DNA of 64,000 bases from a virus: the IMG/VR virus record IMGVR_UViG_3300045988_151219, positions 1 through 64,000 of that record, one strand, 5' to 3'. Positions 1,752 through 63,011 of this stretch are shown here, piece after piece. Numbering within the stretch: position 1 is the first letter of the stretch; each line of letters begins with the position of its first letter. The notes beneath the pieces were generated by a model that ran no database searches, had not been told where the DNA came from, and worked only from the letters and a program-made list of their open reading frames with translations. A program made the translations under genes and the position numbers.

Positions 1752-1757
1752 TTAACA

Positions 1758-6249: not shown

Positions 6250-7440
6250 TTATGATTTGGGTTGTATCTGAATTGTACCATCACCGTTATCTGTTATAGT
6301 GTACTTGTTAGACGAAGCTAAATTTATATTGTAAGAATTATACTGTCCTGTAAGTCCAACAGTTTCTATACCATCTTTAAGTTGCTTTAAATCCAAATTA
6401 CTTATATTATCTATCAGTAATGTACATGAAGTCGTTATTCCAGCCTTTTCTAATTCAGCAACAAAATTACTGTTTACAAGTATACTTTTATCTTCCTCTT
6501 TAATTAAAATATACTTAAGTTTAGAACAACCTAAAACAAAACTAATAAATTTTGTAGTGTTACTTAGTTTAATTCCTCTTAAATCAAGAACTTCTAAATT
6601 AAAACAATTTTCACATAAAGAAGCTATATTAATATTGTCAACTGTTCGCTTAAAAGAACTTTCAGATAGAAGAAGCTGTTTTAAGTTTTCACTACCTTCA
6701 AAAGCATGAAATAAAGTATTTACTCTACTTAAATTCATTCCAGATAAATCTACTTTTTCTAAGTTCCTACAATGTAACGCAAAAGAATCCATACTATTAA
6801 TATCACTTGTTTGAACTTGTATTTTCGGAACTTCTTTGAGTTCTTGACAATCAGCAAAAGTATGGTGCATTTCCTGAGCCTTAGCTTTTATACTTGTATT
6901 TTGCATGATAGCTTTTGTGTCAGCCGTTAATTCAGTCATTGTCTTATAAGAATCATGATACCAAGTATTCATATATGAACTAAAATCAATTTCAGTAGCT
7001 AAAGTCGCCGCTGATGTTTGAGTAATTTTAATGTCCGATAAAACATACTCATGATATTCTGTAACATTTTCATCCGGTTCAGAGGATTCTATTTTCATAG
7101 TACCAATATTATAACCTTCTTTAGGTTTAAGTTTTACGTCTATGCTAAAAAATCCATTTCCTAAATACTTATTAGGAATGTCTACTCCACTTACTTCTCC
7201 ATTAGTACCAGAAGCAACATATATATTATAAACAGGGTACTGATTAGTGAAACTATCTTTATCTATCGTTAAATTATAACCTTTATCAAGTAAATCGTCT
7301 ATTGAAACTCCTGTCTGAATTGATTTTATTTTAGCCGGCATTTCCTTCGGCTTTAATTTTTCTGTAGTTTCTGTTTTTTCTCGAATAGCATCACCAATAT
7401 CAGATAAAGTCTTTTCTTTTATTAAAGCTAATTCACTCAT
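6250..7440 (-). CDS. putative receptor-binding protein with BspA/DUF285-type leucine-rich repeats
   Basis: 396-aa ORF. The N-terminal LSDIGDAIREKTETTEKLKPKEMPAKI motif is typical of this protein class. Repeats FADCQELKEVPKI, FALHCRNLEKVDLSGMNLSRVNTLFHAFEGSENLKQLLL, CENCFNLEVLDLRGIKLSNTTKFISFVLGCSKLKYILI. Confidence 0.65.
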   Translation of the reverse strand: MSELALIKEKTLSDIGDAIREKTETTEKLKPKEMPAKIKSIQTGVSIDDLLDKGYNLTIDKDSFTNQYPVYNIYVASGTNGEVSGVDIPNKYLGNGFFSIDVKLKPKEGYNIGTMKIESSEPDENVTEYHEYVLSDIKITQTSAATLATEIDFSSYMNTWYHDSYKTMTELTADTKAIMQNTSIKAKAQEMHHTFADCQELKEVPKIQVQTSDINSMDSFALHCRNLEKVDLSGMNLSRVNTLFHAFEGSENLKQLLLSESSFKRTVDNINIASLCENCFNLEVLDLRGIKLSNTTKFISFVLGCSKLKYILIKEEDKSILVNSNFVAELEKAGITTSCTLLIDNISNLDLKQLKDGIETVGLTGQYNSYNINLASSNKYTITDNGDGTIQIQPKS

Positions 7441-47082: not shown

Positions 47083-48558
47083 TTAATGTCCGTCAGACGC
47101 CTGTTTTTCATAGAAAATTGTACCCCGAACATAAAGATTCGGTTCAATCATTCTCTTAGCGTAAGACGTTGCATATCCACGGCGACCCATAAAGTCGTCC
47201 AACATTACCAGTTCAGTGTTGTAGAACATCATGTAGGGACTATATACAAACCCTGTATCAATCAGCGTATCGCCTTTGTAACCTACCAGGTAATCGTTTT
47301 CACCTAAGAACGGGTCAAAGTATACGTCTACCTGTCCATCAAGTTTACCTGCAAAATACGGACCAGCTGCCGGAGCTGCTGAACCCTGAAAGCGGGGAGC
47401 CCCTACCATGTTTAAGAGGTCCTGTGCTTTCTTTCCGCAAACTACCCAATTACCGCGGACACGTTTTGTACGGTTGTAAATTGCGTTACACTGTACATGA
47501 ATTTCATTTACGAAAGTCTGAGCCCATTCAGACTGCGAAATGTTAGCTGCAAAAGCGTTGTAGTAGTTATTGAATGAAGAAACAGCTTTAGTACCGTTCC
47601 AAATAGAATTAATGATATCACCGTCAGTTTCATGTTTCAGTTCATTAGCAGCTGCAACAAGCAGTGATTCAGCAATATCAATACCCTGTGCCATCTGGAT
47701 ATCATAAGCTGCATCCAGTGAGAACAGTGAACGGAGCTTTCTCGGCTTAGCAGTTACAAACGTATCAGAAATCTGGATATTGATTTCCGGTACTGCTGCC
47801 GGAGCATATTCTAAATCCTGTTCATAAGAAATAGATACATCGTGAGGACCAGCAACAATGCCCGCAAGTTCTACTACGCCGGTAGCATAGTCAACAGTAC
47901 CTGTAATAGTTCCGCCAGTTGCTTCTGCTAATACTCCATCAGAAGAGTCTTCAACAACTGCATCACCTACGTGGATTAATACAGTTCCAGGAACTACCGG
48001 TACATTTTCAATAGACGTTTTATAAGTAGCAGTAGCTGTCGGTTCATGTGCTTCATCTTCAACTACTTCGCCAGTATAGTTACGTCCATTGTAACCGGCA
48101 GTTTCAAACTGCCCAAATAAAGTATCGCCTTTTTTATTGCGACCTCTGTTTGTACCACGGACATATTTCAGGAAGAAAATCTGCCCCTGTTTCTGCTGCA
48201 AAGGCTGTACAGATACAAGCTGTTCAGCAATGATGTTCGGAAAGACTCCCGTGATCACATCGAAAGCCTGGCGTTTCAGATTCAGTGTATTAACGTTACC
48301 TGAATTATTATATTTGTAAGACTGTGTACCGCTGATTCCGAAAGTCGGGTCAGCAGCTTCGTAAATGGGATGACCCATAGTCTTGCAGTTATACGCCTGG
48401 TCTACTGATTCAAGAAGCATTCCCAAACGAATCTTTTCTTCGTCAGAAAATGAACGACCTTTTGAACGACGGTCTGCTTCTACACAGTCCATACGTCCTT
48501 TGTACTTTTTAAGCAGATATTCACTCTGCTGATATAATTTACTCTGCCATGATTCCAT
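47083..48558 (-). CDS. major capsid protein
   Basis: 491 aa, immediately after the protease-scaffold gene and followed by a strong hairpin. Visibly GC-richer codon usage than the neighbours. A gp23-like N-terminal propeptide has a candidate cleavage site at IYE/AADP. Confidence 0.8.
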   Translation of the reverse strand: MESWQSKLYQQSEYLLKKYKGRMDCVEADRRSKGRSFSDEEKIRLGMLLESVDQAYNCKTMGHPIYEAADPTFGISGTQSYKYNNSGNVNTLNLKRQAFDVITGVFPNIIAEQLVSVQPLQQKQGQIFFLKYVRGTNRGRNKKGDTLFGQFETAGYNGRNYTGEVVEDEAHEPTATATYKTSIENVPVVPGTVLIHVGDAVVEDSSDGVLAEATGGTITGTVDYATGVVELAGIVAGPHDVSISYEQDLEYAPAAVPEINIQISDTFVTAKPRKLRSLFSLDAAYDIQMAQGIDIAESLLVAAANELKHETDGDIINSIWNGTKAVSSFNNYYNAFAANISQSEWAQTFVNEIHVQCNAIYNRTKRVRGNWVVCGKKAQDLLNMVGAPRFQGSAAPAAGPYFAGKLDGQVDVYFDPFLGENDYLVGYKGDTLIDTGFVYSPYMMFYNTELVMLDDFMGRRGYATSYAKRMIEPNLYVRGTIFYEKQASDGH

Positions 48559-48572: not shown

Positions 48573-49961
48573 TTAGTTTATCTGGGTAAGAAAGCTATTT
48601 AACCTTGTATGATTTTCGTTAATTGAATTGATTGTTTCTACCTTTTGAGGCTTATTAACTATTGACTCATTAACTACTGTCGTTTGGTAATATGCTTTCG
48701 CCCCATAGTCAAAATTTGATTTCTTTTTGACGCTCTTCTTTATTTTAGGCTTTGAGATAACAGGCTTTACAGACTCTACTATCTTTTCCTCTTTTTTAGA
48801 AAGCTGCGTCTTTAAATTCTTTATTTGCTTATTTAAAAGCTTTTTGGTTTCGGTAGATTCTTCTATCTTAGAAAAATAAGTGGCTTTTAACATAGAATTT
48901 GATTCCTGTAAAAAGTCTATCTCTTTACTAAGACTATCAATAGATTCTTCTAACTTCATGTTAGAAGCTATAGCAACATCAACTTCTTTAGATTTCTCGA
49001 CAAGTGCCAGCTTACTTTTAGAGATTTCTTTATTAAAGTGACTTGCCTGGCTGTCTATAGATTCTTTTAAATCTTTTATATCTTTACGATATGAAGAAAC
49101 TTGGTTATTTAGAGTCTGGATGTTGTCTGTAAGTGTAGAGATTTTCGCTCTAAGTGTAGAAATTTCTTCTTCACTTTCAAGTAATTTAGACTCTGTTATA
49201 ATATTTTCTTCAAAAAGATTCTCGTAAGACTCGTCTAAAATCTCTTTGTCAGAAGTGCTGTTTTTGATTTTAGCGTCTATCTTACTTTTAATAGAATCAT
49301 ATATATTAGAATCCATAGATTCAAATATCGGTTTTAATGATTTAATATCCGATGAAGTCGCTTCATCAAGATATTTATTCAATGTGTCAATAAATGTAGC
49401 ATTAGACGATTCATTGACCGGAGAAAGTCTTGAAGTAGAAAAGCCAGGATTAGGTACAAAGTCAAATCCTTTAAAAACATAGTTATCTTCATCAGGATAA
49501 CTTATACCATCTCTAACGGTCATTGACCCTCTGGCTCTTGCAGAAATACCCATTTTACTACCATACTTTATCATGGTATATACCATTCTTCCTGCTGGTG
49601 TATTGAGTATGTCGGCTCTTCCCCACAAGACTTTTTTAGCTTCATCCCACCATAATTTAATTACATTATGGGATACTTTATTTAAATCAATATCAAACCG
49701 TTCTTCCGGATGTGATAATTCTCCGAATAATGTACGGTTTTCCATTAATTCAATAGTGGTTGGATAGTTACGTATCTTATTCTCTACTAAAGAAAAAGTG
49801 TAACCCCGCATATTGTTATTTATTTCATCAACTGAAATAAACGGACCCTCAACGGAACAAAGCACAGCATCGTTAGGTACGTTACTTTCAGTAGATTCAC
49901 ATATTTTTAATTGATGTACTTGTATATTGCTTAAGTATTGTAATTCTTTATCTGTAGGCAA
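48573..49961 (-). CDS. prohead core protease (T4 gp21 / S77-like) fused to a coiled-coil scaffold region
   Basis: 462 aa. FGELSHPEE...IKLWWDEAKKVLWGRADIL...GSKMGISARARGS parallels T4 gp21 ALGELNHP...DMWWKGNDVYGRARVI...GVSSRGLGS. The C-terminal half is heptad-rich (LRAKISTLTDNIQTLNNQVSSYRKDIKDLKESI). Confidence 0.8.
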   Translation of the reverse strand: MPTDKELQYLSNIQVHQLKICESTESNVPNDAVLCSVEGPFISVDEINNNMRGYTFSLVENKIRNYPTTIELMENRTLFGELSHPEERFDIDLNKVSHNVIKLWWDEAKKVLWGRADILNTPAGRMVYTMIKYGSKMGISARARGSMTVRDGISYPDEDNYVFKGFDFVPNPGFSTSRLSPVNESSNATFIDTLNKYLDEATSSDIKSLKPIFESMDSNIYDSIKSKIDAKIKNSTSDKEILDESYENLFEENIITESKLLESEEEISTLRAKISTLTDNIQTLNNQVSSYRKDIKDLKESIDSQASHFNKEISKSKLALVEKSKEVDVAIASNMKLEESIDSLSKEIDFLQESNSMLKATYFSKIEESTETKKLLNKQIKNLKTQLSKKEEKIVESVKPVISKPKIKKSVKKKSNFDYGAKAYYQTTVVNESIVNKPQKVETINSINENHTRLNSFLTQIN

Positions 49962-49998: not shown

Positions 49999-52230
49999 TT
50001 AGGTTCTAATTAATCTTTGTTTATATCCCGAATCGTACTTGCGAATTTCGTTGACTGAAAAATGTTTTGTCACTACCCAAATTAATTTATTCTTATTCCG
50101 CCTAATATATGATAAAGAAGTTGATGAATCGTTTCCGAAAAATTCACCGTCAGTAAATACAATTATGCAGTCTGTCTTCTGATTTACTCTTTTCTTTACC
50201 ATCTCTACCGCTGTAGAAAAGTCCGTTCCACCCTGCGGATATTTCGCATAAGCTGCAGCAACTCTACCATACAGACCCCTTAAGGTTGTGTAGTGTTCCC
50301 AATAATAATCTTTGTCAGACGCCCAATATAAAGCTTCGACCTTCAAATTATGTTTGATTATTTTACTTATATTATCTATTTCCGAAATAACTAAACGATA
50401 TTTATTTGCAGACATAGAACCCGAATTATCAAACATTAAAACTATACGTCCTATATAAGATTCATCAGCTGATGAACCAAACGCTCCTTCAAGTCTTCTG
50501 GACGGGTCATTAGGTCTATACTCTTCTTTTACGTTTAAATAATTGGTAAGTAAAGCTCTTAATTTAACTTTCCAATTAGATAAATTCTGATTAACTTTCA
50601 GCGGCTTTTCCATAATAGGTGAAGAAGCCTTCAACGTTTTCTTAGCCTTTGCTAAAGAACTATTTGAGTCTTCATCATCTTTTACAATTCCAGCTTCTTT
50701 TAATTCTCTTAATTCATCTTGGTCTTCTTTACCTTGTTCATTATTTGTATTGTTCAAAATCTTTTCTACTACATCTTTTAAATCTTTTTGTGACATAGCC
50801 GGCATAGATGAATTAGATTTAGACTGTCTAACTAAAATGTTACGCATAGATTTAGGTATAGATGAATTTCCGCCACTTGAAGAGTCACTGCCAGAAGAAC
50901 CACTTTGAGAATCTCCAGCTTGAGAAGTTGTACCCGAACTACCGCTATCTTGCGAATCTCCTTTGTTACCTTTCATATCATTCTGGCTTAAATCTCTTCC
51001 TGTACTTGAAGAGTTTCCACCATTACTACCTTGAGATGAATTATTTCCGTTTTGACTTTGTTGCGAACTTGATGAACCGCCACTCTGTTGATTTTGCTGG
51101 GAATTTCCGCTCTGTTGACGTTGCTGTGAGTTACCACCCTGCTGATTATCTTCCGTATCTACATTGTTACCGTTAGATACTATTTGTTTTTCATTTCCAT
51201 CTTCATCAACCATGGAAATATTATCAGAAAATCTCTTGATAAAATCTAATATTTTATGAGTTACTATTACAGAATTATCTTTATAGTATTCAAGTAATGA
51301 GTTTGAAATAGAAAAATTAACTCCTAAATAGCCGTCAAAGTCAGTCACTTTAGATAAAACATTAGAAGGTAAAGATACTTTTCCATCTAACAGCTGTTTA
51401 AAAGCTTCTCTTAAAATCTTATAGAATTTGTCTTTTGTAAAATCTACTTTACCTAAAGAGAAAAACATGTCATTAGAAACGCCTGTTATCATCGGAGACT
51501 TTAACAAAACTTTTTCTAACGGCAAGTTTATACAAGCATCTTCTACTATATTACATAAAGTATGAGGATATTTTTTAAAAGATTTTTGAAATAAATGTCC
51601 TCTGTAGATGTGGCTCATCTCATGAGCCAGCAAAAGAACTATTGAATTTTTGGCTTCATTTACTATTAAATCAATAGCTCTTTTGTCAGTTAATTTTAAA
51701 TATCTTATATATTCATTGGTAGACTGATAAAGTGCCTGATAAATAATAAATTCCGGATTGTACCAAAGCTCAACGTCTCCTGATAAAGTCCTGGTAACAC
51801 ATAAAGTCGGTATCTTCCTATTTACTTTCTGCGGAATGTGATTAAAGATAATAGCATATTGAGGAAATAAAATATTTAATCTCTTTACAGCAGCATTAAA
51901 CAATTCAACGCCTAACTGCGGATTAACTTTTTTCATTTCCTCTTTTACTATATCAGCAAGCTTTTGTCTTATTTTTAATGTGTCTACATCAGCACTATAA
52001 TTATTAGATAAAGTAGCTTCTTCTTTTGAGCCTTCCGGAGAATAAGCTACTCCTATTGAAAAAGTATTGTCCGGATTTTCTGTGTTAGTATCTTTAGCAA
52101 ATATAAAGTCTATATCTAAAAAGTTCTTCTGTTTTTCAGAAACCAGTTTATTAAGCTCTTGTCCGTCTTTACTAACAAACTTTTCTTTTATATTTTGTAT
52201 ATGTCCTACTATTTCTTTAAAGTTATACAT
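49999..52230 (-). CDS. HExxH metallopeptidase-like / von Willebrand A domain protein with central Q/S/G/N low-complexity linker
   Basis: 743 aa. LLLAHEMSHIYRGH contains the HExxH motif. The C-terminal domain has RIVLMFDNSGSMS (MIDAS DxSxS) and IIVFTDGEF. The architecture resembles DUF2201_N plus VWA-like proteins that pair with MoxR ATPases. Confidence 0.75.
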   Translation of the reverse strand: MYNFKEIVGHIQNIKEKFVSKDGQELNKLVSEKQKNFLDIDFIFAKDTNTENPDNTFSIGVAYSPEGSKEEATLSNNYSADVDTLKIRQKLADIVKEEMKKVNPQLGVELFNAAVKRLNILFPQYAIIFNHIPQKVNRKIPTLCVTRTLSGDVELWYNPEFIIYQALYQSTNEYIRYLKLTDKRAIDLIVNEAKNSIVLLLAHEMSHIYRGHLFQKSFKKYPHTLCNIVEDACINLPLEKVLLKSPMITGVSNDMFFSLGKVDFTKDKFYKILREAFKQLLDGKVSLPSNVLSKVTDFDGYLGVNFSISNSLLEYYKDNSVIVTHKILDFIKRFSDNISMVDEDGNEKQIVSNGNNVDTEDNQQGGNSQQRQQSGNSQQNQQSGGSSSSQQSQNGNNSSQGSNGGNSSSTGRDLSQNDMKGNKGDSQDSGSSGTTSQAGDSQSGSSGSDSSSGGNSSIPKSMRNILVRQSKSNSSMPAMSQKDLKDVVEKILNNTNNEQGKEDQDELRELKEAGIVKDDEDSNSSLAKAKKTLKASSPIMEKPLKVNQNLSNWKVKLRALLTNYLNVKEEYRPNDPSRRLEGAFGSSADESYIGRIVLMFDNSGSMSANKYRLVISEIDNISKIIKHNLKVEALYWASDKDYYWEHYTTLRGLYGRVAAAYAKYPQGGTDFSTAVEMVKKRVNQKTDCIIVFTDGEFFGNDSSTSLSYIRRNKNKLIWVVTKHFSVNEIRKYDSGYKQRLIRT
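50860..51177 (-). repeat. low-complexity coding tract (Q/S/G/N-rich, about 105 codons) inside the vWA protein
   Basis: QQGGNSQQRQQSGNSQQNQQSGGSSSSQQSQNGNNSSQGSNGGNSSS...GDSQSGSSGSDSSSGGNSS. These are imperfect short repeats at nucleotide level. Confidence 0.8.
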
Positions 52231-52235
52231 AAACT

Positions 52236-52568
52236 TTATTCCTCATAAGAAAATCCGATTCCGTTATATCTCGGTCGGCCTAAAGCTTCTATTGTGAGCT
52301 TATATAAATCTTTACTTCTAATCACTACTATATCAAAATCATATATTGTGTGATTAACATTCTGGCGATATTTAATTTTAAATCCGCCTGTAAATTTAGT
52401 GCTGTTATTTACATACCGCCCATCAGTCGCAATAGCAGGAACGAAATATTTCTCATAATCATTCCTGCTCACGTCTATAGAAATGATTTTATTACTGTCT
52501 TCTACTTCTTCTAAGTCAGTACGATAATCGATTGAATTAAGAAAAGATATAAGTACCTCTTTTAACAT
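52236..52568 (-). CDS. hypothetical protein
   Basis: 110-aa ORF between the AAA and vWA genes, with 1-5 nt spacers. Confidence 0.55.
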   Translation of the reverse strand: MLKEVLISFLNSIDYRTDLEEVEDSNKIISIDVSRNDYEKYFVPAIATDGRYVNNSTKFTGGFKIKYRQNVNHTIYDFDIVVIRSKDLYKLTIEALGRPRYNGIGFSYEE

Positions 52569-52569
52569 C

Positions 52570-55500
52570 TTATTTTGCTCCTTTATTAATATTAGCAGCT
52601 ACTTTAGCTTTGATTTCATCAGAAACTACTACCCCTACACTGTCCATAAGCTCTACCAGTAAGTCTGCTGTATCAAAAGCTTTATTAATAAATTTTCTAA
52701 AATATGTACTGTCTTTTCCTGTATAAAGCATATTAACTTTATATTCATTTGATGGAAGACTATTTAAGAAAGCATAAACAACTTCTCTATCATATTCTGG
52801 GTCTTTATTATCAAAATGGTCAATATACTGTTTAAACAAGCTATTAACAACTGAATATCTCTTTTCAATTACAGGTATAATAGAAATTTCCTGTTCTAAG
52901 AATTTGTTTAATATGTCTATTGATACGCAATCTTCTAAATCATAATGCTCTATTTCTCGGTCAGACACATTATTATAAAACTGTCCGAATTTAGAAGAAG
53001 CATCACTTCCTACAATATAAGTAAAAGCTTCTTTACGGTCACGCATAACTTCAATATCTATCTGTCTTGCAATAACCGCTAATCTCTGGAAAGTCCTATA
53101 AAGAGAATCATCTTCTTTTATACTATCAGAAGTATGAGAAGCTACTAATTCCTGGAGCGTTTCTGCTACTGATTGAGAATCTACCTGCTCCCCACCTAAG
53201 GTAACAGAATAATCCCCTCTGGCACCAGCCCATTTATGAATGTACTTCTTGACTGTATTGTAGACATCTACAAAATCAGTATCTTTTCCCTCTCCTGAAA
53301 TTAAATCAGCTACCTGTCTTTGTGTCTTTTCATCAGGGAACAATACAACTCCTCTAAACATAGAAGTTGATTTAGAGTTCTTTATAAATGTACTTAAGTC
53401 TTCCCACGCTCTGGTAGATGAAGAAGAACATTCTAATGACCGCTTTTCAACTGTATTCATAAAAGCAATAGCATCTTCCGGAGCTAAGTCATTAAAATAT
53501 TTTTGTACTTCCGGAGCAAATTCTGAATCTTTCATATACTTCTGGAAAGATTTTAAATCAAGCTCATCAAATTCAGGTTTCTTTAATACTGAAAATCTTG
53601 CTGAAAATGCAGGGTCAAGAGGTTTAACGTCAGAATAAGCTTCCCCTACGTTACAAGAACCTACAACTTTTACTCTGTCTTTATTGAATTTTATACCTCT
53701 AAATCTGTGGTCTGAAATAACTTCTAAGATAGCACTCATAAGAGTCGTATCAGAAAGTCTATTCATTTCATCAAAATGAATAATAACTTCCTGTCCTACG
53801 TCCGCTGCTTTTCTTAGCTTATAATATAATTCTCCGTCACAAGCTTTTATAGTAGTCTTTTCAGGCAAGTTAAATTCAGACAGCTTAGGCAACTCATTTA
53901 GTTCAGACTCATTTAAATTAAGTCCGCCTAAAATATAACGGGCTACAGATACAGTAGTAGGAATACCCATCAAGTCCAGTCTATCTTGTTCAGCTAAGTT
54001 TACATCTATCAGTAAAGCCTTTCTTTTATTTGCTATTGCTTTTAACCTTGAAGATTTACCCATAGATGAAGCTGTTTCAAGCAGAATAGGTGTATTAGAA
54101 TCAATACCCTGTTCTATAAAATCAGACATAACATCATCAGAAAGTTCAGCTTCTTTATATCCTAATTTAGTCAGATAGTCATAGAAGTTTTCTCCACCTT
54201 CTCCTAAAAGACCCATAAAGATATCTTTCTTAATTACTTTATCGGGATGTTGATAAAGATAGTTTGAAGCCATTTCCCACGTGCGGAAGTTAGGATAAGA
54301 AGTTTCCCCAGCTTTGTCAGTATCCCCTGTATCATTATAAACTTTCTCTACTAAAGAAAAATCATAATACTGTGTTGGGAATTTTTCTAAGTATTCTCTT
54401 ACTACCGGATGAATGTTAGTCCTGTCTCCTTCAGACTTTTCATCTGCCCAGGCTTTCCACGGTTTAATAACATCTTCCGGCAAAATAGGAATAGGTTCAA
54501 AACGGTCATTAAAAGCAGCATCGTCTGAAATTCCTACTTGATATATTGACTGTAAATCTTCTTCTTTTCCTACGGCATAGTTAGAAGCTGCTACAATCTT
54601 AGCATACTTCATAGGGTGACCCATAAATTCCTTGTCCGACAGTATCTTTGTAAAAGCTTGTCTGATAGGTGGATAACATCTCATAAGTTCGTCCAGGAAC
54701 AGAACAGGCGGTTTTGCTCCTTCTTTAAACTTATTCAATATTTTTGTGAGTCTTTCTTTGTCATAGTCTTCTGCGGTTTCTATTTTCTCTTCTATAATAG
54801 GAATAGATTTACGGCAGAAATCTACGTATGAATCTAAGCATTCTATCATAAAAGAAGCAGGAGCTGAATTTGCCACTATCTCTGAAAGGTCCTCTAAATC
54901 TTCTGTATTATTTACTTTAGATAAACCTTGTAAGTCAAGACGTGATAAGAAAGCTAACCGAATATCTACTAAACGATAGCCATACTGGTCAGCTAATTTC
55001 TTAACCATAGCAGATTTAGCTACCCCTGACTGCCCTAAAAGCAAAGGTATTCTATTCTGCGGTTTATCATTTTGAAAATAAACATCAAGTCTACTTACAT
55101 ATGTAGGGGTACCTGATTCTACATTCCCTACACTGTTTTTAAATTCATCATCATCTACTTTGTTAAATAGGTCTTTGAGATTTGCTTCATCAATAGTCAT
55201 AAGTTTCATAGGTTTCCTTTGGATAGATTCATTAATATAATTATTAAAAGGGTGGTCATCAGTTAAAGAGTCTTTGTGATTTAAGCAGAAGTCTAAATAG
55301 TAAGAGTCCGAAACTCCCCCTATTTCCTGTCCGTCTATATCAGAATAGACTACAGTCGTTCCGCTTTCTGCCGTATCTACATATGAGTTTCTTAAAACAT
55401 CGTTATAGTCTACTTCGACTATCATTGCTTTAATTTTCTCCATATGCTTTTTAATCGAATATACGACAAAATCAGGTTCTGTCATTACATAAAAATTAAA

Positions 55501-55683
55501 TGGACGAACCTGATATATAGTTGGTGATTTTATTGAGCTTACTACTGATGAAGTAAACTCATCTGATAGATTGTTAAATTGTGAGGCTTTAGCTGTCAGT
55601 AAAAGATTATTTGTATCAAAGTCTACTACTTTGTTTGATATAACGGGACATTTTTCTAAGAAAGGTAAATAATCTTGTACCAC
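52570..55683 (-). CDS. MoxR/dynein-type (AAA_5-like) ATPase with two AAA modules
   Basis: 1037 aa. Module 1 has Walker A LLLGQSGVAKSAMV, then LVDIRLAFLSRLDLQG and Walker B VLFLDELMRC. Module 2 has ETASSMGKSS, LIDVNLAEQDRLDLMG and Walker B IIHFDEMNRL. Confidence 0.8.
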   Translation of the reverse strand: MVQDYLPFLEKCPVISNKVVDFDTNNLLLTAKASQFNNLSDEFTSSVVSSIKSPTIYQVRPFNFYVMTEPDFVVYSIKKHMEKIKAMIVEVDYNDVLRNSYVDTAESGTTVVYSDIDGQEIGGVSDSYYLDFCLNHKDSLTDDHPFNNYINESIQRKPMKLMTIDEANLKDLFNKVDDDEFKNSVGNVESGTPTYVSRLDVYFQNDKPQNRIPLLLGQSGVAKSAMVKKLADQYGYRLVDIRLAFLSRLDLQGLSKVNNTEDLEDLSEIVANSAPASFMIECLDSYVDFCRKSIPIIEEKIETAEDYDKERLTKILNKFKEGAKPPVLFLDELMRCYPPIRQAFTKILSDKEFMGHPMKYAKIVAASNYAVGKEEDLQSIYQVGISDDAAFNDRFEPIPILPEDVIKPWKAWADEKSEGDRTNIHPVVREYLEKFPTQYYDFSLVEKVYNDTGDTDKAGETSYPNFRTWEMASNYLYQHPDKVIKKDIFMGLLGEGGENFYDYLTKLGYKEAELSDDVMSDFIEQGIDSNTPILLETASSMGKSSRLKAIANKRKALLIDVNLAEQDRLDLMGIPTTVSVARYILGGLNLNESELNELPKLSEFNLPEKTTIKACDGELYYKLRKAADVGQEVIIHFDEMNRLSDTTLMSAILEVISDHRFRGIKFNKDRVKVVGSCNVGEAYSDVKPLDPAFSARFSVLKKPEFDELDLKSFQKYMKDSEFAPEVQKYFNDLAPEDAIAFMNTVEKRSLECSSSSTRAWEDLSTFIKNSKSTSMFRGVVLFPDEKTQRQVADLISGEGKDTDFVDVYNTVKKYIHKWAGARGDYSVTLGGEQVDSQSVAETLQELVASHTSDSIKEDDSLYRTFQRLAVIARQIDIEVMRDRKEAFTYIVGSDASSKFGQFYNNVSDREIEHYDLEDCVSIDILNKFLEQEISIIPVIEKRYSVVNSLFKQYIDHFDNKDPEYDREVVYAFLNSLPSNEYKVNMLYTGKDSTYFRKFINKAFDTADLLVELMDSVGVVVSDEIKAKVAANINKGAK

Positions 55684-55695: not shown

Positions 55696-56250
55696 TTATT
55701 GCTGTAATAAGTATTTGAATAAATATTTAAAAGCTATTGAAACTTCTGTATCAAACTGCTTACTTAATGATATATTTCTGTTGCTTTCCCAGTCTATATC
55801 CATAAGTTCAAAGATAGGTTTCAGCCGCATATATACTGAAGGTGAATATGAAATCTGATACTGTCCTGAATCTGTTTTATATATACATTTCAACGCAAAT
55901 ACCAGTACTAAAACCTGAAACATTGTTACGACTGTCCGAATAAAAACATAGTCTTTATTCTGGTCATCTAAATAGTCCTGGTCTCCCACTTGCTGGAGTT
56001 CTTTAACCAGTTGCATAAACCTTTGATTCATGAAAATACGGCTCATAGCAGACCCGCCGGCATCTTGATACAGCTTTCTGATGTCTTCGATATCATCGAT
56101 ATCAGGATTATCCATAAGCTCTTTTATTTCATCATTATATTTCCTCAAAAGCGGAAGTACAATAACATCACTCTTCGGTCCAAAAGGTTTTTTAGACAAA
56201 AGCTTTCTAAAATATTTCTGGTAGTAAGTAGAAATCAGCTGTAACTTCAT
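55696..56250 (-). CDS. hypothetical protein with one central hydrophobic helix
   Basis: 184-aa ORF containing VVTMFQVLVLVFALKCIY. Confidence 0.55.
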   Translation of the reverse strand: MKLQLISTYYQKYFRKLLSKKPFGPKSDVIVLPLLRKYNDEIKELMDNPDIDDIEDIRKLYQDAGGSAMSRIFMNQRFMQLVKELQQVGDQDYLDDQNKDYVFIRTVVTMFQVLVLVFALKCIYKTDSGQYQISYSPSVYMRLKPIFELMDIDWESNRNISLSKQFDTEVSIAFKYLFKYLLQQ

Positions 56251-56278: not shown

Positions 56279-57283
56279 TCAAATAATTGAAAGTGTAAAA
56301 TATCTCCTTAACAGAATCTGCTTTATAAGTGTTACTAAATTTATAATACGATATTTTTCACTTAGTAAATATTTCTTTCTCCCAAAAGGTTTTACTTCTA
56401 AATAAAAATCCTTTGGCAATAACTTACGTAAACTATCAGGAAGTATTGTTGTTAAATCTAAAAATCCCCTTGTTATTGAGTAAAAAGCTGATTTAGTGGC
56501 AATTCTTCCACCATCTAAAAACGCTATTGCTACTTCTTCTAAATTACTCTCCTTTAAAATTTTGTATGATTTAATATTATCTTTAGCACTATTATTTACT
56601 AAAATATAAAGCTGGTCTTGTTTTGTCGCCTTATATGTTAAGTAAGAAAATTTTCGTACGGGTATTATAGATTTTATAACATAATATATGTCTACCTTCT
56701 CTCCCTTTTTAGGCTTCACATATCTATATAGAATAGTAAGCACAGATTTATATAAATTTACATTCTTAACTAACAAAATTAACTTATCTACAACATTTAA
56801 AATATTGTAATCAACTCCGCTATTTAAAAGCTTCACCATCAACTGAAAAGCGTCTAAGTTTTCTTCTTTTAAGTTAAATAAGTTAAAATCCAAACTAAGT
56901 TTAAAAGCTATCAGTATATCCCTTATATTATTTTTATCGTCTTTAAAGTTTAAATAGTCTTTTAGCTGTTGGTCAGTTCCTACATAAACAGCTACCCCTA
57001 AACTTGGGTCAGTTAAATAAAAATTTCCTGATTTAATTCCATAAAATAACCCAAATAAAACTACATAAGGTTCGTCAACTTTTAACAGTTTAATATTTAA
57101 TTTAACATATTTACTAAAATTGTCAAAAGATACTATATGTAATCCAGTAAATTCTGGAAATATCTTCTGTATTTTAAGTAGATAGTCAGTTTTTTTACTT
57201 ATATCCTTATAAAATTTAATTACAGCCTCTTGACCGTTAATGCAAGAAATATTTAATTTGAAAGTTTTTTCTTGTACATTCAT
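56279..57283 (-). CDS. paralog 6 (most divergent member of the array)
   Basis: 334 aa. LFGLFYGIKSGNFYLTDPSLGVAVYVGTDQQLKDYL and DAFQLMVKLLNSG align to the family core. The C-terminal tail is not conserved. Confidence 0.7.
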   Translation of the reverse strand: MNVQEKTFKLNISCINGQEAVIKFYKDISKKTDYLLKIQKIFPEFTGLHIVSFDNFSKYVKLNIKLLKVDEPYVVLFGLFYGIKSGNFYLTDPSLGVAVYVGTDQQLKDYLNFKDDKNNIRDILIAFKLSLDFNLFNLKEENLDAFQLMVKLLNSGVDYNILNVVDKLILLVKNVNLYKSVLTILYRYVKPKKGEKVDIYYVIKSIIPVRKFSYLTYKATKQDQLYILVNNSAKDNIKSYKILKESNLEEVAIAFLDGGRIATKSAFYSITRGFLDLTTILPDSLRKLLPKDFYLEVKPFGRKKYLLSEKYRIINLVTLIKQILLRRYFTLSII

Positions 57284-57319
57284 TGGCAGTACCCTTCTAC
57301 AAACAGTTTATATTTTATA

Positions 57320-58404
57320 TTATACTAATTCTTTCATTAGTCTTTTTGAGATTTTGTTAAATATTACAGAAAATCGTCTACTATTGTGAGTATTATGAAT
57401 AAACTTATTTGCTTGAAACTCATGACCAAAATTAATTTTATTAGGGTCTGTAGGAGATTTTATAGAAGTCGCTTTATTAAAAGTTTCTTCCCCCATTAAA
57501 TCTTTTGCCGGACTTATTAAATCTTGAAAAGTAACTTCTGTCGTTTTTTTCTAAAGAAGGACTTTGTTTAATGAAATATTCTGTTAATTCCACCTTATTT
57601 ACATAATTAAGAATTTTATTATAGTGTTCTGAATCAGAATCATATTGGCTTAACGGAACATCAGAAGAAGCTCGGTATAAATAATATTTACAAGCTGATG
57701 AAGATTCTATAGGAACTATAGTAGAATTTTTATAAAATACTCTTTCTATATCTGAATAAAGGTTTGTTTTTTCCGCATTCAATTTTAAAATCCGTTGAAA
57801 GAAAAACTGAACTTCTATAACTTCTTTAGCTAAATTAAACAGCTTATATACAAAACCATCAACACTACTTGGGTCTGATACACTCTCTACAGAATGACTA
57901 CATAACAAGTCTATTAATAACTCAAAATTATCTACTTCTTTTTCTATTTCTTCATCTTTATTTAAAAAATATTCTATATTTCCTGTTAGCTTATAAGCCA
58001 TAACTTTATTAATAAAATCTTGACTTAAATCTACTCCTAAATAAAGAGATAAATCAGCTAAAGTATTAAACGGAACTGCAATACCAGTCTCCGGTTCAGT
58101 TAAATAAAATATTTCTGTTTCCGGAACATAATACATATTAAACAAATAAATATAATTTACCGTTTTGTTTTTTCATCCCAGTAAAGACAAAATAACTTTT
58201 CATTTTCATCTACTTCAAAGGGAAAGTCGGTAACATTTTCCGCTTTTCTTGTAGTAGATTTAAACAATAATATAAAAAGCATATATATTTACAGTCATTA
58301 TCTCTATTTGAGTTCAGTAATTTATCTATGAAAGTTAATTGTCTTACAAAACTAATTATTCTACGGGATACTTCACCAGTATCCAAAAAATAAAGTTTCT
58401 TCAT
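57320..58404 (-). pseudogene. paralog 5, disrupted by at least three frame changes
   Basis: The fragments are in family order but in different frames:
- MKKLYFLDTGEV... (track ORF 58210..58419).
- ...KAENVTDFPFEVDENEKLFCLYWDE.
- KNKTVNYIYLFNMYYVPETEIFY... (track ORF 57477..58145).
- ...TTEVTFQDLISPAKDLMGEETFNKATS...RRFSVIFNKISKRLMKELV, with its stop at 57320-57322.
Two of the switches sit in plus-strand T runs, 57544..57550 and 58168..58173. Confidence 0.7.
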
Positions 58405-58405
58405 G

Positions 58406-59440
58406 TTAGGACACCTCATTTAAAACAGATTTAGATATTTTATTAAAAATTACAGAAAATCTTCTATCCAGTAATCCTCTTTTATATAAAAAATTAGTAT
58501 TCATATCAGCATAATCCCCAGCATATTTTTCTTGCCCTGGTTCTATTTCAACCTTATTAAATGAATTTAAAGCTCTTTTACTTATATGAAGCTTTAACGG
58601 CTCTAATAAATCTGCCGCTGATTTTTCCGCCGATTCTATTGACGATGAAGTTTTTATGAAATACTCTTTTAGCTCTTCTTTATTTAATGCTCTATATAAT
58701 GAATTAGACACGTCATTTGTAGTAATATTAATATCCACTACATTATCTAAAGACAATTTCTTTAAATCATCTAACTTATTTGCAAAAATAAACAAATAAG
58801 GAACAAAAGAAGCAGATATACCGTATAATTTTATATTAGTTTGCCAGTCTTCCAGTAAAGAAAAAAATCTTCTTGAATTATTAACTAATAAAGTACAAAC
58901 AAAAACAACATCCAATAAAGTTTTCTTGACTTGATTGATGTCTACCTGGCTCTCTTGTAATGAATTTTGCAAACATGAAATTAAAAGCTGGAAATTATCT
59001 ACGTCTTCATCATCTCCGGTTTCAAAAAAATTTGCTATGTTTCCGGATATTTTATAAGCTAAAGCTTTTTTAAAGAAGTCATTTCTTATCTTAAACTGCA
59101 ACTTTTTTTCAAGAGTCGTTAGAGACAATATAGGAATAGCTCCAACATCTGATTTATTAGCATAAAAAATTTCTGTGTCCGGTGAATAGTACATACCCCA
59201 AAGACATATAAAGTTACGTGGATTTACACAAGTAACAGCTTCTCCTCGTGTTAGGACCCTTATACTATTTTTAGTTAAGTTATGTACTATAAAAAATAAA
59301 GATTTAGTTTTAAAGAAAGCTTCATATCTTTTTATAACCGAATTAACAGCCTTTATAGAATGAAACACATTATCTAAATTCTGTTCATCTGATAGAAAAG
59401 TATCTAAATGAAATTCAAAAAGAGTTTTTTCTACTCCCAT
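58406..59440 (-). CDS. paralog 4
   Basis: 344 aa. LWGMYYSPDTEIFYANKSDVGAIPILSLTTLEKKL; DNFQLLISCLQNS; RRFSVIFNKISKSVLNEVS. Confidence 0.8.
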   Translation of the reverse strand: MGVEKTLFEFHLDTFLSDEQNLDNVFHSIKAVNSVIKRYEAFFKTKSLFFIVHNLTKNSIRVLTRGEAVTCVNPRNFICLWGMYYSPDTEIFYANKSDVGAIPILSLTTLEKKLQFKIRNDFFKKALAYKISGNIANFFETGDDEDVDNFQLLISCLQNSLQESQVDINQVKKTLLDVVFVCTLLVNNSRRFFSLLEDWQTNIKLYGISASFVPYLFIFANKLDDLKKLSLDNVVDINITTNDVSNSLYRALNKEELKEYFIKTSSSIESAEKSAADLLEPLKLHISKRALNSFNKVEIEPGQEKYAGDYADMNTNFLYKRGLLDRRFSVIFNKISKSVLNEVS

Positions 59441-60442
59441 TTAACTTACCTCTTTAAGTAGTATCTTAGATATTTTATTGAAAATTACTGAAAACTTCTT
59501 ACAATATAATATACTCATTTCTCCATAATACGTTGTATAAAGCTCTTTACTTTGTTTAGCATCCGCTTCTATTTTACTATCGGCTGTATCAAATAAAGAA
59601 AGAGTTCTCTTAGAAACTTTATCTTGGATAGGCTTTAAAAAATCCTTTATTGATTTATCAGCTACATCAAGAGACGGTGAAGTTTTTATAAAATACTCTG
59701 AAAGCTCTTCTTTATTTAAAGCTTTATATAAAGGATTAGTTAAATTAAATTCACTTGTAGTAAATTCATGTTCTACAAAATATGACGGATAATCAAGAGA
59801 AGCTTTTCTAAAATCATCTATATTATCAATACCTAATAGAGTATTTTTCTGAAACGTACATTCTATAGTTTTAAATTCTTCCTCTTCAACATGTTGTGCA
59901 AAATCTTCCATAAAAGCACCAAACGTAAAAAGAAATCTTGTCATTGCATCTGTAAATTTAAGTAACCTATCTTTTATTTCTTTTTTGTCTGTGATAACCT
60001 CAACGTTCATATTCTGTAAAAGATTAACCATTAAAGAGAATGTATCCGATGTTGTATCTTGAATATCAAAAGATAATAAATCATCTATATTACCTGTTAC
60101 TTTATAAAGTAAAACTCTCTCGGTAAAATTTTGATTAATAGGATATTGCAAATATTTACTTAAAGCTTTTAAAGAAACAACAGGTATCGCTATCTTCTCT
60201 GATTTATTAGCATAAAAAATTTCTGTGTCTGGTGAATAATAAGCTCCAAATATCTTTAAAAAATTTTGAGGTCTAATTTCTTCTTCCCAGCTTAAAATTA
60301 CATAATCATCATGGAAATTTTCATATTTAAAAAGATATTCCATATTTAAATCTTTTTTTAGTCTTCTTAGTGGAGAATTTACTATTCTTACTCCACCCTT
60401 TATATCAGAAGTAGGATAATTTACTCGATAAGACCGTTTCAT
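59441..60442 (-). CDS. paralog 3
   Basis: 333 aa. IFGAYYSPDTEIFYANKSEKIAIPVVSLKALSKYL; DTFSLMVNLLQNM; KKFSVIFNKISKILLKEVS. Confidence 0.8.
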   Translation of the reverse strand: MKRSYRVNYPTSDIKGGVRIVNSPLRRLKKDLNMEYLFKYENFHDDYVILSWEEEIRPQNFLKIFGAYYSPDTEIFYANKSEKIAIPVVSLKALSKYLQYPINQNFTERVLLYKVTGNIDDLLSFDIQDTTSDTFSLMVNLLQNMNVEVITDKKEIKDRLLKFTDAMTRFLFTFGAFMEDFAQHVEEEEFKTIECTFQKNTLLGIDNIDDFRKASLDYPSYFVEHEFTTSEFNLTNPLYKALNKEELSEYFIKTSPSLDVADKSIKDFLKPIQDKVSKRTLSLFDTADSKIEADAKQSKELYTTYYGEMSILYCKKFSVIFNKISKILLKEVS

Positions 60443-60443
60443 T

Positions 60444-61460
60444 TTAACTTACCTCTTTAAGCAGTATCTTAGATATTTTGTTGAAAATGACTGAAAACTT
60501 TCGGTCAGTTAATCCTCTGCTATATTTTGCTCGTACTGCATTATAACCTATGTCTCTCTTTTCAACTGCTTTATCGAAAGCCGAAATTGTTCTTCCGCCT
60601 GTCACATCTTTTACAAACTCTAAATGTTCTTTCATTGATTTTTCAGCCACATCAAGTGAAGAAGAAGATAATAAGAAAAAGTCAAATAGTTCTTCTCTAT
60701 TAAAAACTTTATTTTCTACTATGTCTTCTTTATCATAAGTAGAATCTGTACATGAAGAATAAAGATAAGATTTACTATTAAATCTTTTAACAGGCTCCGT
60801 GCAAGATGGACCTAACCAATACTCATAATTAAATAAAAAAGTAAACCTACGTTTTATATTATCTACAAGGACTACAAATTTTTTTAAAATTCTGGTCGCT
60901 TCATTAATATCTACATTAAATATTTCAGAATGATTCTGAAGGAGATTAATTAAAAGCTCGAAATTATCTGTATCCTTAACATCTTTATTTTCATATAAAA
61001 AATAATCCAATTTCCCTGATATTTTAAAGGAAACGGCTCTTTTTACAAAATCATCTGAAATTTTAAAATTTAAAATCCTTTCAAAAGTTTTTAAATTAAT
61101 AAAGGGAATAGCTCCCCCACCTTTAGGGTGATTGAAATAAAATATTTCTGTTTCAGGTGAGTAATATAAGCTAAAAAGTTTTATTGCATTAGTCGGCTTA
61201 ACTATTTCATCCCATTCAAATTTAACAGCTCTAACATTCATATCTTTTCTTTGTATACCTGGTTGAGTTGCCAACGCACTTTCCGGAACATCTTCTAAAT
61301 TAACGATTCTATAAGTAAATAAACAATCACTCTCTGCTATTTGATTTTTTAACTCGTTCCCCCATTTATAAAAAAAGTCACTTAAAAAAGAACTTAAAGT
61401 ATGCCACCAGTTTTCTACATTCACATAATCTGGAAAAAATCCGTATATTTCTCTATGCAT
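60444..61460 (-). CDS. paralog 2
   Basis: 338 aa. LFSLYYSPETEIFYFNHPKGGGAIPFINLKTFERIL; DNFELLINLLQNH; RKFSVIFNKISKILLKEVS. Confidence 0.8.
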   Translation of the reverse strand: MHREIYGFFPDYVNVENWWHTLSSFLSDFFYKWGNELKNQIAESDCLFTYRIVNLEDVPESALATQPGIQRKDMNVRAVKFEWDEIVKPTNAIKLFSLYYSPETEIFYFNHPKGGGAIPFINLKTFERILNFKISDDFVKRAVSFKISGKLDYFLYENKDVKDTDNFELLINLLQNHSEIFNVDINEATRILKKFVVLVDNIKRRFTFLFNYEYWLGPSCTEPVKRFNSKSYLYSSCTDSTYDKEDIVENKVFNREELFDFFLLSSSSLDVAEKSMKEHLEFVKDVTGGRTISAFDKAVEKRDIGYNAVRAKYSRGLTDRKFSVIFNKISKILLKEVS

Positions 61461-61464
61461 TTAT

Positions 61465-62571
61465 CTAAGCCCCTCCATTCAAACTTACCTCTTTTAATAG
61501 AGATTTACTTATTTTATTGAAAATTACTGAAAATTTACGATTAAGTAATTCATTCCGTCTATCAAGCTGTCCTAAAGGTTTATCTATAAAAGCATCTATT
61601 TTATCTAAATTAGATTGGTCAGCTGCCTTATTAAAGAAAGAAGCAGCCCTGCTACTTACTCTACTTTTTAACGGTGTAACTAAATCTTTAAAAGCTTTTT
61701 CCGCACTTTCAACAGAATCAGATTTATCTAAATAGTAGTTAGATATTTCTTCCCTATTTACAGCTTTTTGCAAATTTAACAGTTCTTTTTTATCTTTAAA
61801 AGCATATTCCAGTCTATAAATTAAAGTGGAATACGAATAAAGAGTTTTACTTACAGCAGAAAAATTATTACTGTCTACCATCCCTTCTTGTGAAGCTGCA
61901 AAAGAAGGAGCAATTTCTTTATATAAAGAAGTGTTAAATTCATACATATCCAAAGTAGACATGTAAATATGATAGAAATAAACCTGTAAAGCTGATACTA
62001 AATTTACCATCTTATAAAGAAGTTTACTTCTACTTTTTGTATCTAAAGCACTGTTATAACTATCAACACCTTTAGTCAACATTTGCACTAAAAGCGAAAA
62101 AGAATCCGCATCTTGAATTTCAGACTCTTTAAATAAAGTCTCTAAATCTCCGGTAATTTTATATGATAAAGCTCTGTTTTCAAAATCAGTTTCTAAAGGA
62201 AGCTCTAAATACTCCGCTAAAGTTTTTAACTTCATAATCGGCACAGCATAATCATATTTAGGGTCGTTTAAATAAAAAATATTTGTGTCCGGAGAATAGT
62301 ACATACTAAAAATGTAGATACTGTCTTTCGGCTTGACAGTCTCTTCCCATTCCAGTTTTAAAAAACTTAATTCTTCATCAATAGTATCATATGGAAAATC
62401 AGGGTCTTGTTCCGCTTGTTTAAAAGTTAAGAATTTTATGTTAAATAAGAACTCTCCTAAATAAAGGTTCATAGTATTTAAAATGCTTTTAAACAAGTCT
62501 TCAAATTTAGACTTCTTATAAAAAATATTCGATTCTCCAGTACCTAACGATAAATATAAAGTTCTTTTCAT
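61465..62571 (-). CDS. paralog 1
   Basis: 368 aa. IFSMYYSPDTNIFYLNDPKYDYAVPIMKLKTLAEYL; DSFSLLVQMLTKG; RKFSVIFNKISKSLLKEVSLNGGA. Confidence 0.8.
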   Translation of the reverse strand: MKRTLYLSLGTGESNIFYKKSKFEDLFKSILNTMNLYLGEFLFNIKFLTFKQAEQDPDFPYDTIDEELSFLKLEWEETVKPKDSIYIFSMYYSPDTNIFYLNDPKYDYAVPIMKLKTLAEYLELPLETDFENRALSYKITGDLETLFKESEIQDADSFSLLVQMLTKGVDSYNSALDTKSRSKLLYKMVNLVSALQVYFYHIYMSTLDMYEFNTSLYKEIAPSFAASQEGMVDSNNFSAVSKTLYSYSTLIYRLEYAFKDKKELLNLQKAVNREEISNYYLDKSDSVESAEKAFKDLVTPLKSRVSSRAASFFNKAADQSNLDKIDAFIDKPLGQLDRRNELLNRKFSVIFNKISKSLLKEVSLNGGA

Positions 62572-62588: not shown

Positions 62589-63011
62589 TTAAGTTCCTTT
62601 TACAAATACTGAAACGTCTTTCTTTGAGATTAAAAATGATTGGTCTTCTTCTACTTCAAGACTGTAAATAAAATCATCATAAAAATAATTTGACTTCTTT
62701 ATCAAAACTTTCTGATATATTATACTTTTCTTTCCGTGAGGACTTAATCCAAAAAATTGTTTGGGAAGCTCTTTTAAAGCTTCTATACTATTATTATACG
62801 ATGAAATAAAAAATAGCTGGTTTTCAGTAGCGTAAATTACTTCTTTCCCTATTATCAATTTACCCACTTTATCGTATGAGATAGTCTTCCCGATAACCTC
62901 TCTAACTCTATTTCTATGCGTGTAAACATAGTCTCCTATATTTACTAAATAGATAGGCAGTCTCCCTCTTGATGTTTTAACTAAAGTAGAAGCTGAAAAA
63001 CAGTCTCTCAT
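62589..63011 (-). CDS. free-standing degenerate Hint (mini-intein-like) domain protein
   Basis: 140 aa. MRD-CFSASTLVKTSRGRLPIYLVNIGDYVYT is intein block A with Cys1. ATENQLFF has Gln in place of the block-B His. C-terminal FIYSLEVEEDQSFLISKKDVSVFVKGT matches the blocks F/G pattern but lacks the His-Asn terminus. Confidence 0.65.
   Translation of the reverse strand: MRDCFSASTLVKTSRGRLPIYLVNIGDYVYTHRNRVREVIGKTISYDKVGKLIIGKEVIYATENQLFFISSYNNSIEALKELPKQFFGLSPHGKKSIIYQKVLIKKSNYFYDDFIYSLEVEEDQSFLISKKDVSVFVKGT

Follow-up and report, generated by a model that had tools for sequence, protein, structure and literature searches.

A 64,000-nucleotide stretch of viral DNA (positions 1-64,000 of IMG/VR record IMGVR_UViG_3300045988_151219; this whole stretch is called the window hereafter) encodes, at 49,999-55,683, a MoxR-like ATPase with two AAA modules, a small protein, and a partner in which a zincin-like metallopeptidase domain is joined to a von Willebrand factor A (vWA) domain that has a MIDAS (metal ion-dependent adhesion site). 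The ATPase belongs to a phage-specific family, the catalytic motifs of both large proteins are conserved among their homologues, and in most of the lineages found the genes lie beside those of the prohead protease and the major capsid protein (MCP). With a confidence slightly short of even, we favour the reading that these genes encode an accessory head-morphogenesis chaperone-protease, that is, an AAA+/MIDAS remodelling machine with a built-in protease that would act on virion proteins.

The tandem ATPase and its zincin-vWA partner

An initial annotation of the window had placed three open reading frames (ORFs) on the minus strand in this interval, and all of them are present. They are given here with the domains of their products, some of which were delimited on AlphaFold2 (AF2) models and their predicted local distance difference test (pLDDT) values:

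52570..55683, minus strand: tandem MoxR/AAA_5-class ATPase, 1037 aa, GTG start (AAA_5, phrog_1297)
55279..55683, minus strand: N-terminal beta-rich ATPase domain, residues 1-135, then disordered residues 136-190 (AF2 model)
54154..55071, minus strand: AAA module 1 and lid, residues 205-510 (19-sequence alignment, AAA_5)
53344..54138, minus strand: AAA module 2 and lid, residues 516-780 (19-sequence alignment, phrog_16335)
52573..53343, minus strand: C-terminal all-helical ATPase domain, residues 781-1037 (AF2 model)
52236..52568, minus strand: small ORF of 110 aa, intercalated between ATPase and partner (position kept, no family match)
49999..52230, minus strand: HExxH/vWA protein, 743 aa (zincin, tether and vWA)
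51196..51978, minus strand: zincin-like metallopeptidase domain, approximately residues 85-345 (HEMSH 203-207, H212, D231, N235)
50578..51192, minus strand: disordered S/G/N/Q/D-rich tether, residues 347-551 (pLDDT below 50 throughout)
50002..50574, minus strand: vWA domain, residues 553-743, in which the MIDAS is complete (D601, S603, S605, T669, D694)

When compared with Pfam, the ATPase matches AAA_5 in module 1 only (residues 214-354, 30.9 bits for a cut-off of 22, E 3.2e-7). Among PHROGs, it matches phrog_1297 ("ATPase") in two stretches (E 3.4e-48) and phrog_16335 over residues 521-698. The initial annotation had described a double MoxR/AAA_5 protein with Walker A, Walker B and DL.G motifs in both modules; these motifs can be read directly and are kept in an alignment of 19 homologues (25-52% identity). 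Module 1 contains the Walker A motif GQSGVAKS (217-224), RLDLQG (248-253), the Walker B motif VLFLDE (327-332), the sensor-1 residue N368 and the arginine finger R394, and the corresponding elements of module 2 are TASSMGKS (537-544, with GPSSxGKT as family consensus), RLDLMG (568-573), IIHFDE (634-639), N678 and R696. Residues G217, K223, S224, D331, E332, N368 and R394 of module 1, and G542, K543, E639, N678 and R696 of module 2, are invariant in the 19 sequences. Additionally, R-x-D-L-x-G, the arginine in D/A-R-F and the lid motif R-(T/A)-W-E (FRTWE in module 1, TRAWE in module 2) are all kept in both modules across the homologues. Both ATP sites look competent.

Modules 1 and 2 give a collinear alignment (22% identity, E 8e-6), and each of them also aligns to the single-module ATPases (371-442 aa) of PA5oct and 121Q-like phages. 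Because the modules align to each other, the 1037-aa protein is an internal tandem duplication of a phage MoxR-like unit formed by the AAA core and its lid. The flanking domains have conserved positions of their own in the 19-sequence alignment: P7, P61 and Y93 are invariant in the N-terminal domain, as are W818 and R883 in the C-terminal one, where G892 and F899 are kept in at least 90% of the sequences. The N-terminal domain is missing in a 911-aa homologue (P0021), whose match begins at profile position 187.

Inteins are found in two of the homologues, one of them in the P-loop of module 2 (P0004, between GK and S, after residue 543) and the other after ISD658 (P0013). These sites appear to mark the module-2 P-loop and the ISD motif as functionally constrained. 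An intein was also observed in a different gene: in L004, the locus most closely related to that of the window, it interrupts the gene upstream of the portal (121-4302), which likely encodes the terminase.

A profile of the ATPase, compared with the sequences in PDB, has midasin as its best match (E 3.6e-19), and the best stretch of module 2 covers residues 521-572. The AF2 model of the protein has a pLDDT of 79.7 and a predicted TM-score (pTM) of 0.60. In a Foldseek search it matched dynein AAA2-4 and Rea1 over approximately 1000 columns with a TM-score (TMq) of about 0.3, a low value obtained with a monomer model, and in the same search the stacked type-II AAA proteins (p97/Cdc48) had a TMq of about 0.13. 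The model suggests that the two modules may lie side by side in one ring. In both modules it also has additional elements, located on the model itself, that lie after beta-2 and before the Walker B strand (residues 255-322 in module 1 and a hairpin, 574-579/609-614, in module 2).

The partner required a different treatment, as its low-complexity region swamped searches with the full-length query (one match, and none by tblastn); the linker was consequently cut out before the searches. The resulting linker-free family profile retrieved 161 proteins from 5.8 billion sequences, and almost all of those listed carry PF13203 and PF09967 (E ~1e-10). As the profile retrieves proteins of this kind almost exclusively, the partner can be assigned, on sequence grounds, to the uncharacterised DUF2201_N+DUF2201 zincin-vWA family, of which it is a divergent, linker-expanded member. 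Of the Pfam profiles whose use had been suggested in the initial annotation, AAA_5 exceeds its cut-off in module 1, as mentioned above, and VWA_2 does so in the partner (29.9 bits, cut-off 27), but DUF2201_N is below threshold for the window protein alone (14.8 vs 23.2 bits). However, DUF2201_N matches three of the seven members of the partner family, with a best E of 1.4e-4.

The HExxH motif and the vWA MIDAS, both named in the initial annotation, are confirmed by their conservation. HEMSH 203-207, D231, N235, DNSGS 601-605, T669 and D694 are invariant in seven homologues; when 29 distant DUF2201 proteins are added, H203, E204, H207, D231, N235 and all five MIDAS residues are still invariant, and H212 joins them. 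Against PDB sequences, the zincin has a weak match to the MJ1213 minigluzincin. The AF2 model of the partner has an overall pLDDT of 55, which is low because residues 347-551 are disordered. Its vWA domain resembles, according to Foldseek, integrin I-domains and the vWA domain of ANTXR2 (TMt 0.5-0.63), as well as the MIDAS domain of MDN1; no zincin is present among the listed PDB matches of the partner, which are all vWA domains, the model being weak in the zincin region.

The linker had been estimated at approximately 105 residues, which holds for its most extreme run, but the disordered tether as a whole reaches about 200 residues (347-551). A low-complexity, net-negative tether of 177-277 aa is present in seven of seven homologues, and more distant lineages encode the zincin and the vWA halves in two neighbouring genes. 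An antisense ORF of 104 aa on the plus strand (50862-51176), opposite the part of the gene encoding the linker, has no support and was treated as spurious. Additionally, the zincin-vWA partner is widely mislabelled as "HNH endonuclease" in phage records and in phrog_1314, and no HNH family is found among its Pfam matches.

Phage distribution and gene order

The tandem ATPase has 28 homologues by word index (24-99% identity), and 153 representatives at E <=1e-30 among 1.84 billion proteins. In IMG/VR, 38 loci were recovered by a scan with an alignment-based query; a single ATPase protein as query gave none. Among 50,697 phage records, the tandem ATPase is present only in ten records of Rhizobium Cuauhnahuacvirus, and its matches in 185,579 species genomes (using a 7-sequence alignment) are three, all of them on short contigs of metagenome-assembled genomes (MAGs). 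The family is phage-specific.

This distribution bears on the possibility that these are auxiliary metabolic genes whose products insert metals, as do pairs of the CobS/CobT, CbbQ/CbbO or NorQ/NorD type. The broad AAA(MoxR)-vWA logic is the same, and T4-like cyanophages do carry cobS. However, the partner has a zincin peptidase, which chelatase partners lack, the family is virtually missing from the species genomes, and its closest relatives are all on phage contigs. CobS/CobT-type homologues had been named beforehand as the finding that would speak against a structural role, and no CobS, CobT, CbbQ, NorQ, RavA or ViaA model of Pfam or NCBIfam matched at E values up to 0.1, so a chelatase or activase identity was rejected. 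We consider this explanation almost certainly wrong. Identity as a defence system was rejected as well: PADLOC gives just a P-loop-level match to BrxF (E 5e-5 over 43 residues), and the family is on phage contigs.

The window corresponds to the structural arm of a myovirus of low GC content (~32%), with every gene on the minus strand. The genes around the trio are the following:

From 63301, minus strand: T4-type portal, its frame open to base 64000 and cut by the window end
56279-62571, minus strand: six tandem paralogous ORFs of 334/222/344/333/338/368 aa (pairwise E 1e-9 to 1e-50)
55696..56250, minus strand: 184-aa ORF, 12 nt upstream of the ATPase (possible fourth member by position only)
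48573..49961, minus strand: S77 prohead protease (T4 gp21-type) with a scaffold-like coiled-coil tail fused to it (Peptidase_S77 E 6.9e-13, phrog_207 E 6.3e-40, coiled-coil families)
47083..48558, minus strand: gp23-type MCP (Pfam Gp23 E 2.4e-52)

The packing is tight, with gaps of 1 nt between the ATPase gene and the 110-aa ORF, 5 nt between this ORF and the vWA gene, 37 nt between the vWA gene and the protease gene, and 14 nt between the latter and the MCP gene. The trio is not a product of chance, as it consists of long ORFs in DNA of 32% GC with homologues at 24-99% identity, and it is probably co-transcribed with the prohead protease and capsid genes. The gaps on the coding strand contain no terminator-like site, and a promoter and terminator scan of 46.5-59 kb, which found no excess over shuffled sequences, was uninformative. 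The trio had been described as lying between the portal and the protease; it does abut the protease gene, but 7.6 kb and nine ORFs without assigned function separate the ATPase from the portal. Only a 182-aa C-terminal piece of the portal is in the ORF list, although its frame stays open up to 64000. On the 3′ side of the capsid gene are the neck, sheath, tape-measure and baseplate genes, and in the tail/baseplate region an 1174-aa protein (15607-19131, minus strand) has a strong match to DUF4815 (E 1.5e-134).

Gene order in the other loci was scored with hidden Markov models for the portal, ATPase, zincin, vWA, protease and MCP, built from the first loci. The order ATPase, zincin, vWA, S77 protease and gp23 was found in 29 of the 29 IMG/VR loci with enough downstream sequence, sometimes with one ORF inserted, and the portal is 5-7 kb upstream in those loci. 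When the loci were clustered at 40% ATPase identity, 13 clusters were obtained and the head-block order was present in 10 of them; the window, L004-L006, L008 and L011-L013 have it. The vWA partner lies downstream of the ATPase in every locus with enough downstream sequence. In L010, the pair follows gp23 and is flanked by the sheath gene and a gp13-like neck gene, still within the structural block. Consequently, the question raised in the initial annotation, whether the trio always neighbours the portal and protease genes, has a largely affirmative answer as regards the protease, with exceptions in L010, the Rhizobium phages, a jumbo contig and a MAG contig.

The interval from the portal to the ATPase has undergone heavy turnover of genes in related loci. 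In L008, a phage contig of 164 kb, an IS605 OrfB/TnpB-like gene (Cas12f1-like_TNB, 5600-6697) lies in this interval. Additionally, inserted DNA, presumably introns or homing-endonuclease cassettes, divides the gp23 gene in two or three in many related phage contigs of ~200 kb (L008, L017, L022, L023, L029, L031, L032, L035 and others).

The small ORFs of the region keep their positions more than their sequences. An ORF of 100-140 aa occupies the position of the 110-aa ORF in L004, L005, L006, L008, L009, L011 and L012, but similarity of the 110-aa ORF is detectable solely to L004, so its sequence evolves fast, and it has no match in the family libraries searched (Pfam, PHROGs, NCBIfam and PADLOC). 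Similarly, an ORF of 177-200 aa precedes the ATPase in L004, L005, L006 and L008, with significant similarity between the 184-aa ORF of the window and L004 alone. The six paralogues between the portal and the ATPase belong to no Pfam or PHROG family; four of them end in FSVIFNKISK(S/I)(L/V)L(K/N)EVS, and the sole other homologue found is a 325-aa ORF directly after the portal in L004. As phmmer and jackhmmer reach only L004 from any of these ORFs, they were rejected as sequence-conserved partners of the pair. In T4 the gene order is 20-67-68-21-22-23, and by their position the six paralogues could be prohead-core or internal proteins. Finally, a 140-aa ORF beside the portal (62589-63011, minus strand), which starts with MRDCFSASTLV, has a sub-threshold match to Hint_2 (E 1.9e-4, 22.2 vs 28.4 bits) and looks like an orphan intein or a Hint N-terminal fragment.

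A proposed role in head morphogenesis and its alternatives

The clients of the proposed chaperone-protease are most likely virion proteins, because the genes are packed against the protease-scaffold and capsid genes and this order is conserved across deep divergence. From the domains described above, and by analogy with dynein and midasin, we infer a scheme for ring stoichiometry, vWA docking, clients and timing. Three ATPase chains, placed side by side, would form one ring of six modules. The MIDAS-competent vWA domain would dock on this ring, and its metal ion would grip an acidic residue of the client. The tether of approximately 200 residues, flexible and net-acidic, would then let the HExxH zincin reach and cut the client during ATP-driven pulling. 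The clients would be virion proteins produced at the same time, such as those of the prohead core or scaffold, or other head proteins that have to be assembled, extracted or trimmed. In its most specific form, that of a phage "mini-midasin" whose trimeric six-module ring extracts prohead-core or scaffold proteins while the tethered zincin cuts them, the proposal must be considered unlikely.

Head assembly in tailed phages is usually described without ATP-driven steps, except for chaperonin-assisted capsid folding and the packaging motor, and one prohead protease is usually regarded as responsible for head maturation. If the mini-midasin proposal were true, a clade of T4-like heads would have a second, ATP-driven maturation system beside the gp21-type protease, which would be the first dedicated AAA+ unfoldase or extractor in tailed-phage capsid maturation. 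A head role in the broader sense would mean that the conserved AAA+/MIDAS/zincin set adds an energy-dependent remodelling or quality-control step, and it would provide a small, tractable system related to the midasin principle.

Several observations weigh against a head role. The closest cultured relatives by MCP are SP-15, LIS04 and HSE3 (33-35% identity), and several pair-bearing lineages are at 28-32%; in fact, the MCP (33-34% identical) and the protease of Thornevirus are as similar to those of the window as those of several pair-bearing lineages. In Thornevirus phages, the slot between portal and protease is filled by ribonucleotide reductase (RNR), as seen with its large and small subunits in Listeria phage LIS04 (L002 9933-13068) and Bacillus phage HSE3 (L003 9977-13096), and searches of the phage records detected no ATPase/vWA pair in Thornevirus. 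Therefore, gp23/gp21 heads can assemble without the pair, which is not a universal requirement. The portal-to-protease interval is a swap site for large unrelated cargo, and this calls for caution when function is deduced from position.

Placement elsewhere is also variable. In Rhizobium phages the tandem module lies outside the structural genes, near gyrase, DprA-like and ParB-like genes and tRNAs, and in a jumbo contig of ~449 kb the pair adjoins DNA polymerase A. The 2.6 kb available after the trio on a MAG contig of Deferribacterales contain no protease gene. Among homologous pairs with a single-module ATPase, that of an N4-like Vibrio phage is directly upstream of the genes for a Dda helicase and DNA polymerase, that of 121Q-like phages comes after five structural genes, and that of PA5oct is amid hypothetical genes. 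Additionally, haloarchaeal siphoviruses hold AAA-vWA pairs in replication or accessory modules. When independent placements are counted instead of loci, structural modules are favoured to a modest or weak degree, and the conserved order could reflect vertical inheritance of a cargo insertion. The side-by-side arrangement of the modules, in turn, leans on low TM-scores and a monomer model. The initial annotation had deduced a capsid role from placement; the link with the head block is indeed conserved, but position has proved to be weak evidence for function.

The RNR found in the same slot and the replication-associated placements of homologous pairs speak in favour of a non-structural remodeller-protease, acting on host or phage targets in replication, takeover or anti-defence, whose place in the head block would be an inherited insertion in the cargo slot. 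The fact that cellular MoxR-vWA pairs mostly serve complex maturation or conflict systems is also in line with such a role. However, 10 of 13 deep lineages have retained the order beside the protease in spite of gene turnover and the invasion of the capsid gene by mobile elements, and the different placement in L010 is again inside structural genes. The proteins matched none of the defence or anti-defence families, and since their genes are packed tightly with those of the late head proteins, they are expected to be expressed late, in poor agreement with takeover. We thus regard the non-structural alternative as somewhat unlikely. Even if it were correct, the pair would still be an uncharacterised machine, specific to phages, whose catalytic sites are clear and which occurs in phages of ~200 kb, possibly with many from human-associated metagenomes among them, as the IMG sample numbering suggests.

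A further alternative is that the proteins are packaged cargo, internal to the head or ejected, and that they act either within the particle or in the following host cell. The position of the trio, after the six-paralogue array and where T4 has its genes for prohead-core and internal proteins, would be compatible with this, and p618, the MoxR-type ATPase encoded by Acidianus two-tailed virus (ATV), is one of the major proteins of the virion and is assumed to act within the particle after its release. In PA5oct, the record of the distant ATPase homologue has a note of tandem mass spectrometry with electrospray ionization (ESI-MS/MS), that is, it was detected in the proteome of virion preparations, which is in line with a head role as well. 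By contrast, the record of its peptidase-vWA partner has no such note, and an abundant late protein can be carried over into a particle preparation and be detected there. In fact, the PA5oct paper counts seven proteins detected by mass spectrometry as virion-unrelated enzymes, which also weighs against a head role; its main text does not discuss the ATPase, the "gp149" mentioned there being the portal under a different numbering. Moreover, an ATPase inside the capsid would have no supply of ATP, and neither a capsid-targeting sequence nor a conserved gp21-type cleavage site was identified. Packaging as cargo is consequently very unlikely in our opinion, and an accessory role in head morphogenesis is still the reading that we tentatively prefer.

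Comparison with known systems

The initial annotation stated that a role in capsids was not established for such a pair, and this needs to be qualified in view of an earlier proposal and of a precedent in an archaeal virus. Iyer, Anantharaman, Krishnan, Burroughs and Aravind (2021, PMC7824862) described a newly recognised pair formed by a MoxR ATPase and a vWA protein with an N-terminal metallopeptidase in group 2.2 (T4-like) jumbo phages. They proposed that it acts in virion assembly and peptidolytic processing, citing p618/p892 of ATV; in the literature searched, we found no experiment on any bacteriophage member of this family. As for the precedent, ATV p618 is present in the virion, hydrolyses ATP and interacts with tail proteins as well as with p892, the vWA protein (PMC4124505). 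Thus, ATV also has a virus-encoded MoxR-vWA pair, for which a chaperone role in virion morphogenesis is experimentally supported. However, ATV is a spindle-shaped virus of archaea, there is only one module in its ATPase and no peptidase domain in the partner, and the pair acts in extracellular tail growth instead of head assembly. No sequence relationship between the window pair and p618/p892 was detected here.

Among cellular proteins, the closest in architecture to the partner are those described as "predicted metal-dependent peptidase" (PF13203 and PF09967), in which an HExxH zincin is followed by a vWA-like domain and whose HExxH and DxSGS...T...D residues align with those of the window protein. 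Unlike these DUF2201 proteins (400-520 aa, without a long tether), the window protein is tethered and is below the Pfam cut-offs for both DUF2201 models. CobS/CobT, CbbQ/CbbO, NorQ/NorD and RavA/ViaA share the generic AAA(MoxR)-vWA logic, but they serve cellular metabolic maturation and their partners have no peptidase. According to Kaur et al. (2020), dynein-midasin, MoxR, YifB and the chelatases form one helix-2-insert clade whose members work with vWA co-chaperones.

Midasin/Rea1 resembles the phage system in that several AAA_5 modules are concatenated in each chain and in that the MIDAS is preceded by a long acidic unstructured region. In eukaryotic ribosome assembly, midasin pulls assembly factors off a large particle. 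The phage ATPase differs in having two modules instead of six and no midasin linker domain, and the phage MIDAS is on a separate polypeptide, fused to a zincin. As there are not six modules in the chain, the likeness is one of working principle and not of family membership.

The pair described by Iyer et al., like that of the window, consists of a MoxR-class ATPase encoded with a peptidase-vWA partner in phages of the T4 superfamily, and it presumably corresponds to the pairs of PA5oct/121Q type. The partner of the window is distantly homologous to the "Zn-dependent hydrolase" or "HNH endonuclease" genes of Asteriusvirus and PA5oct (phrog_1314). Unlike pairs of this type, that of the window has a tandem ATPase (1037 aa vs 361-442 aa), a partner with a tether of approximately 200 aa (743 aa vs 374-469 aa), an intercalated small ORF and a fixed place beside the prohead protease. 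This kind of system has already been described computationally, and what is new is the tandem ATPase, the long tether, the intercalated ORF and the lock to the prohead protease.

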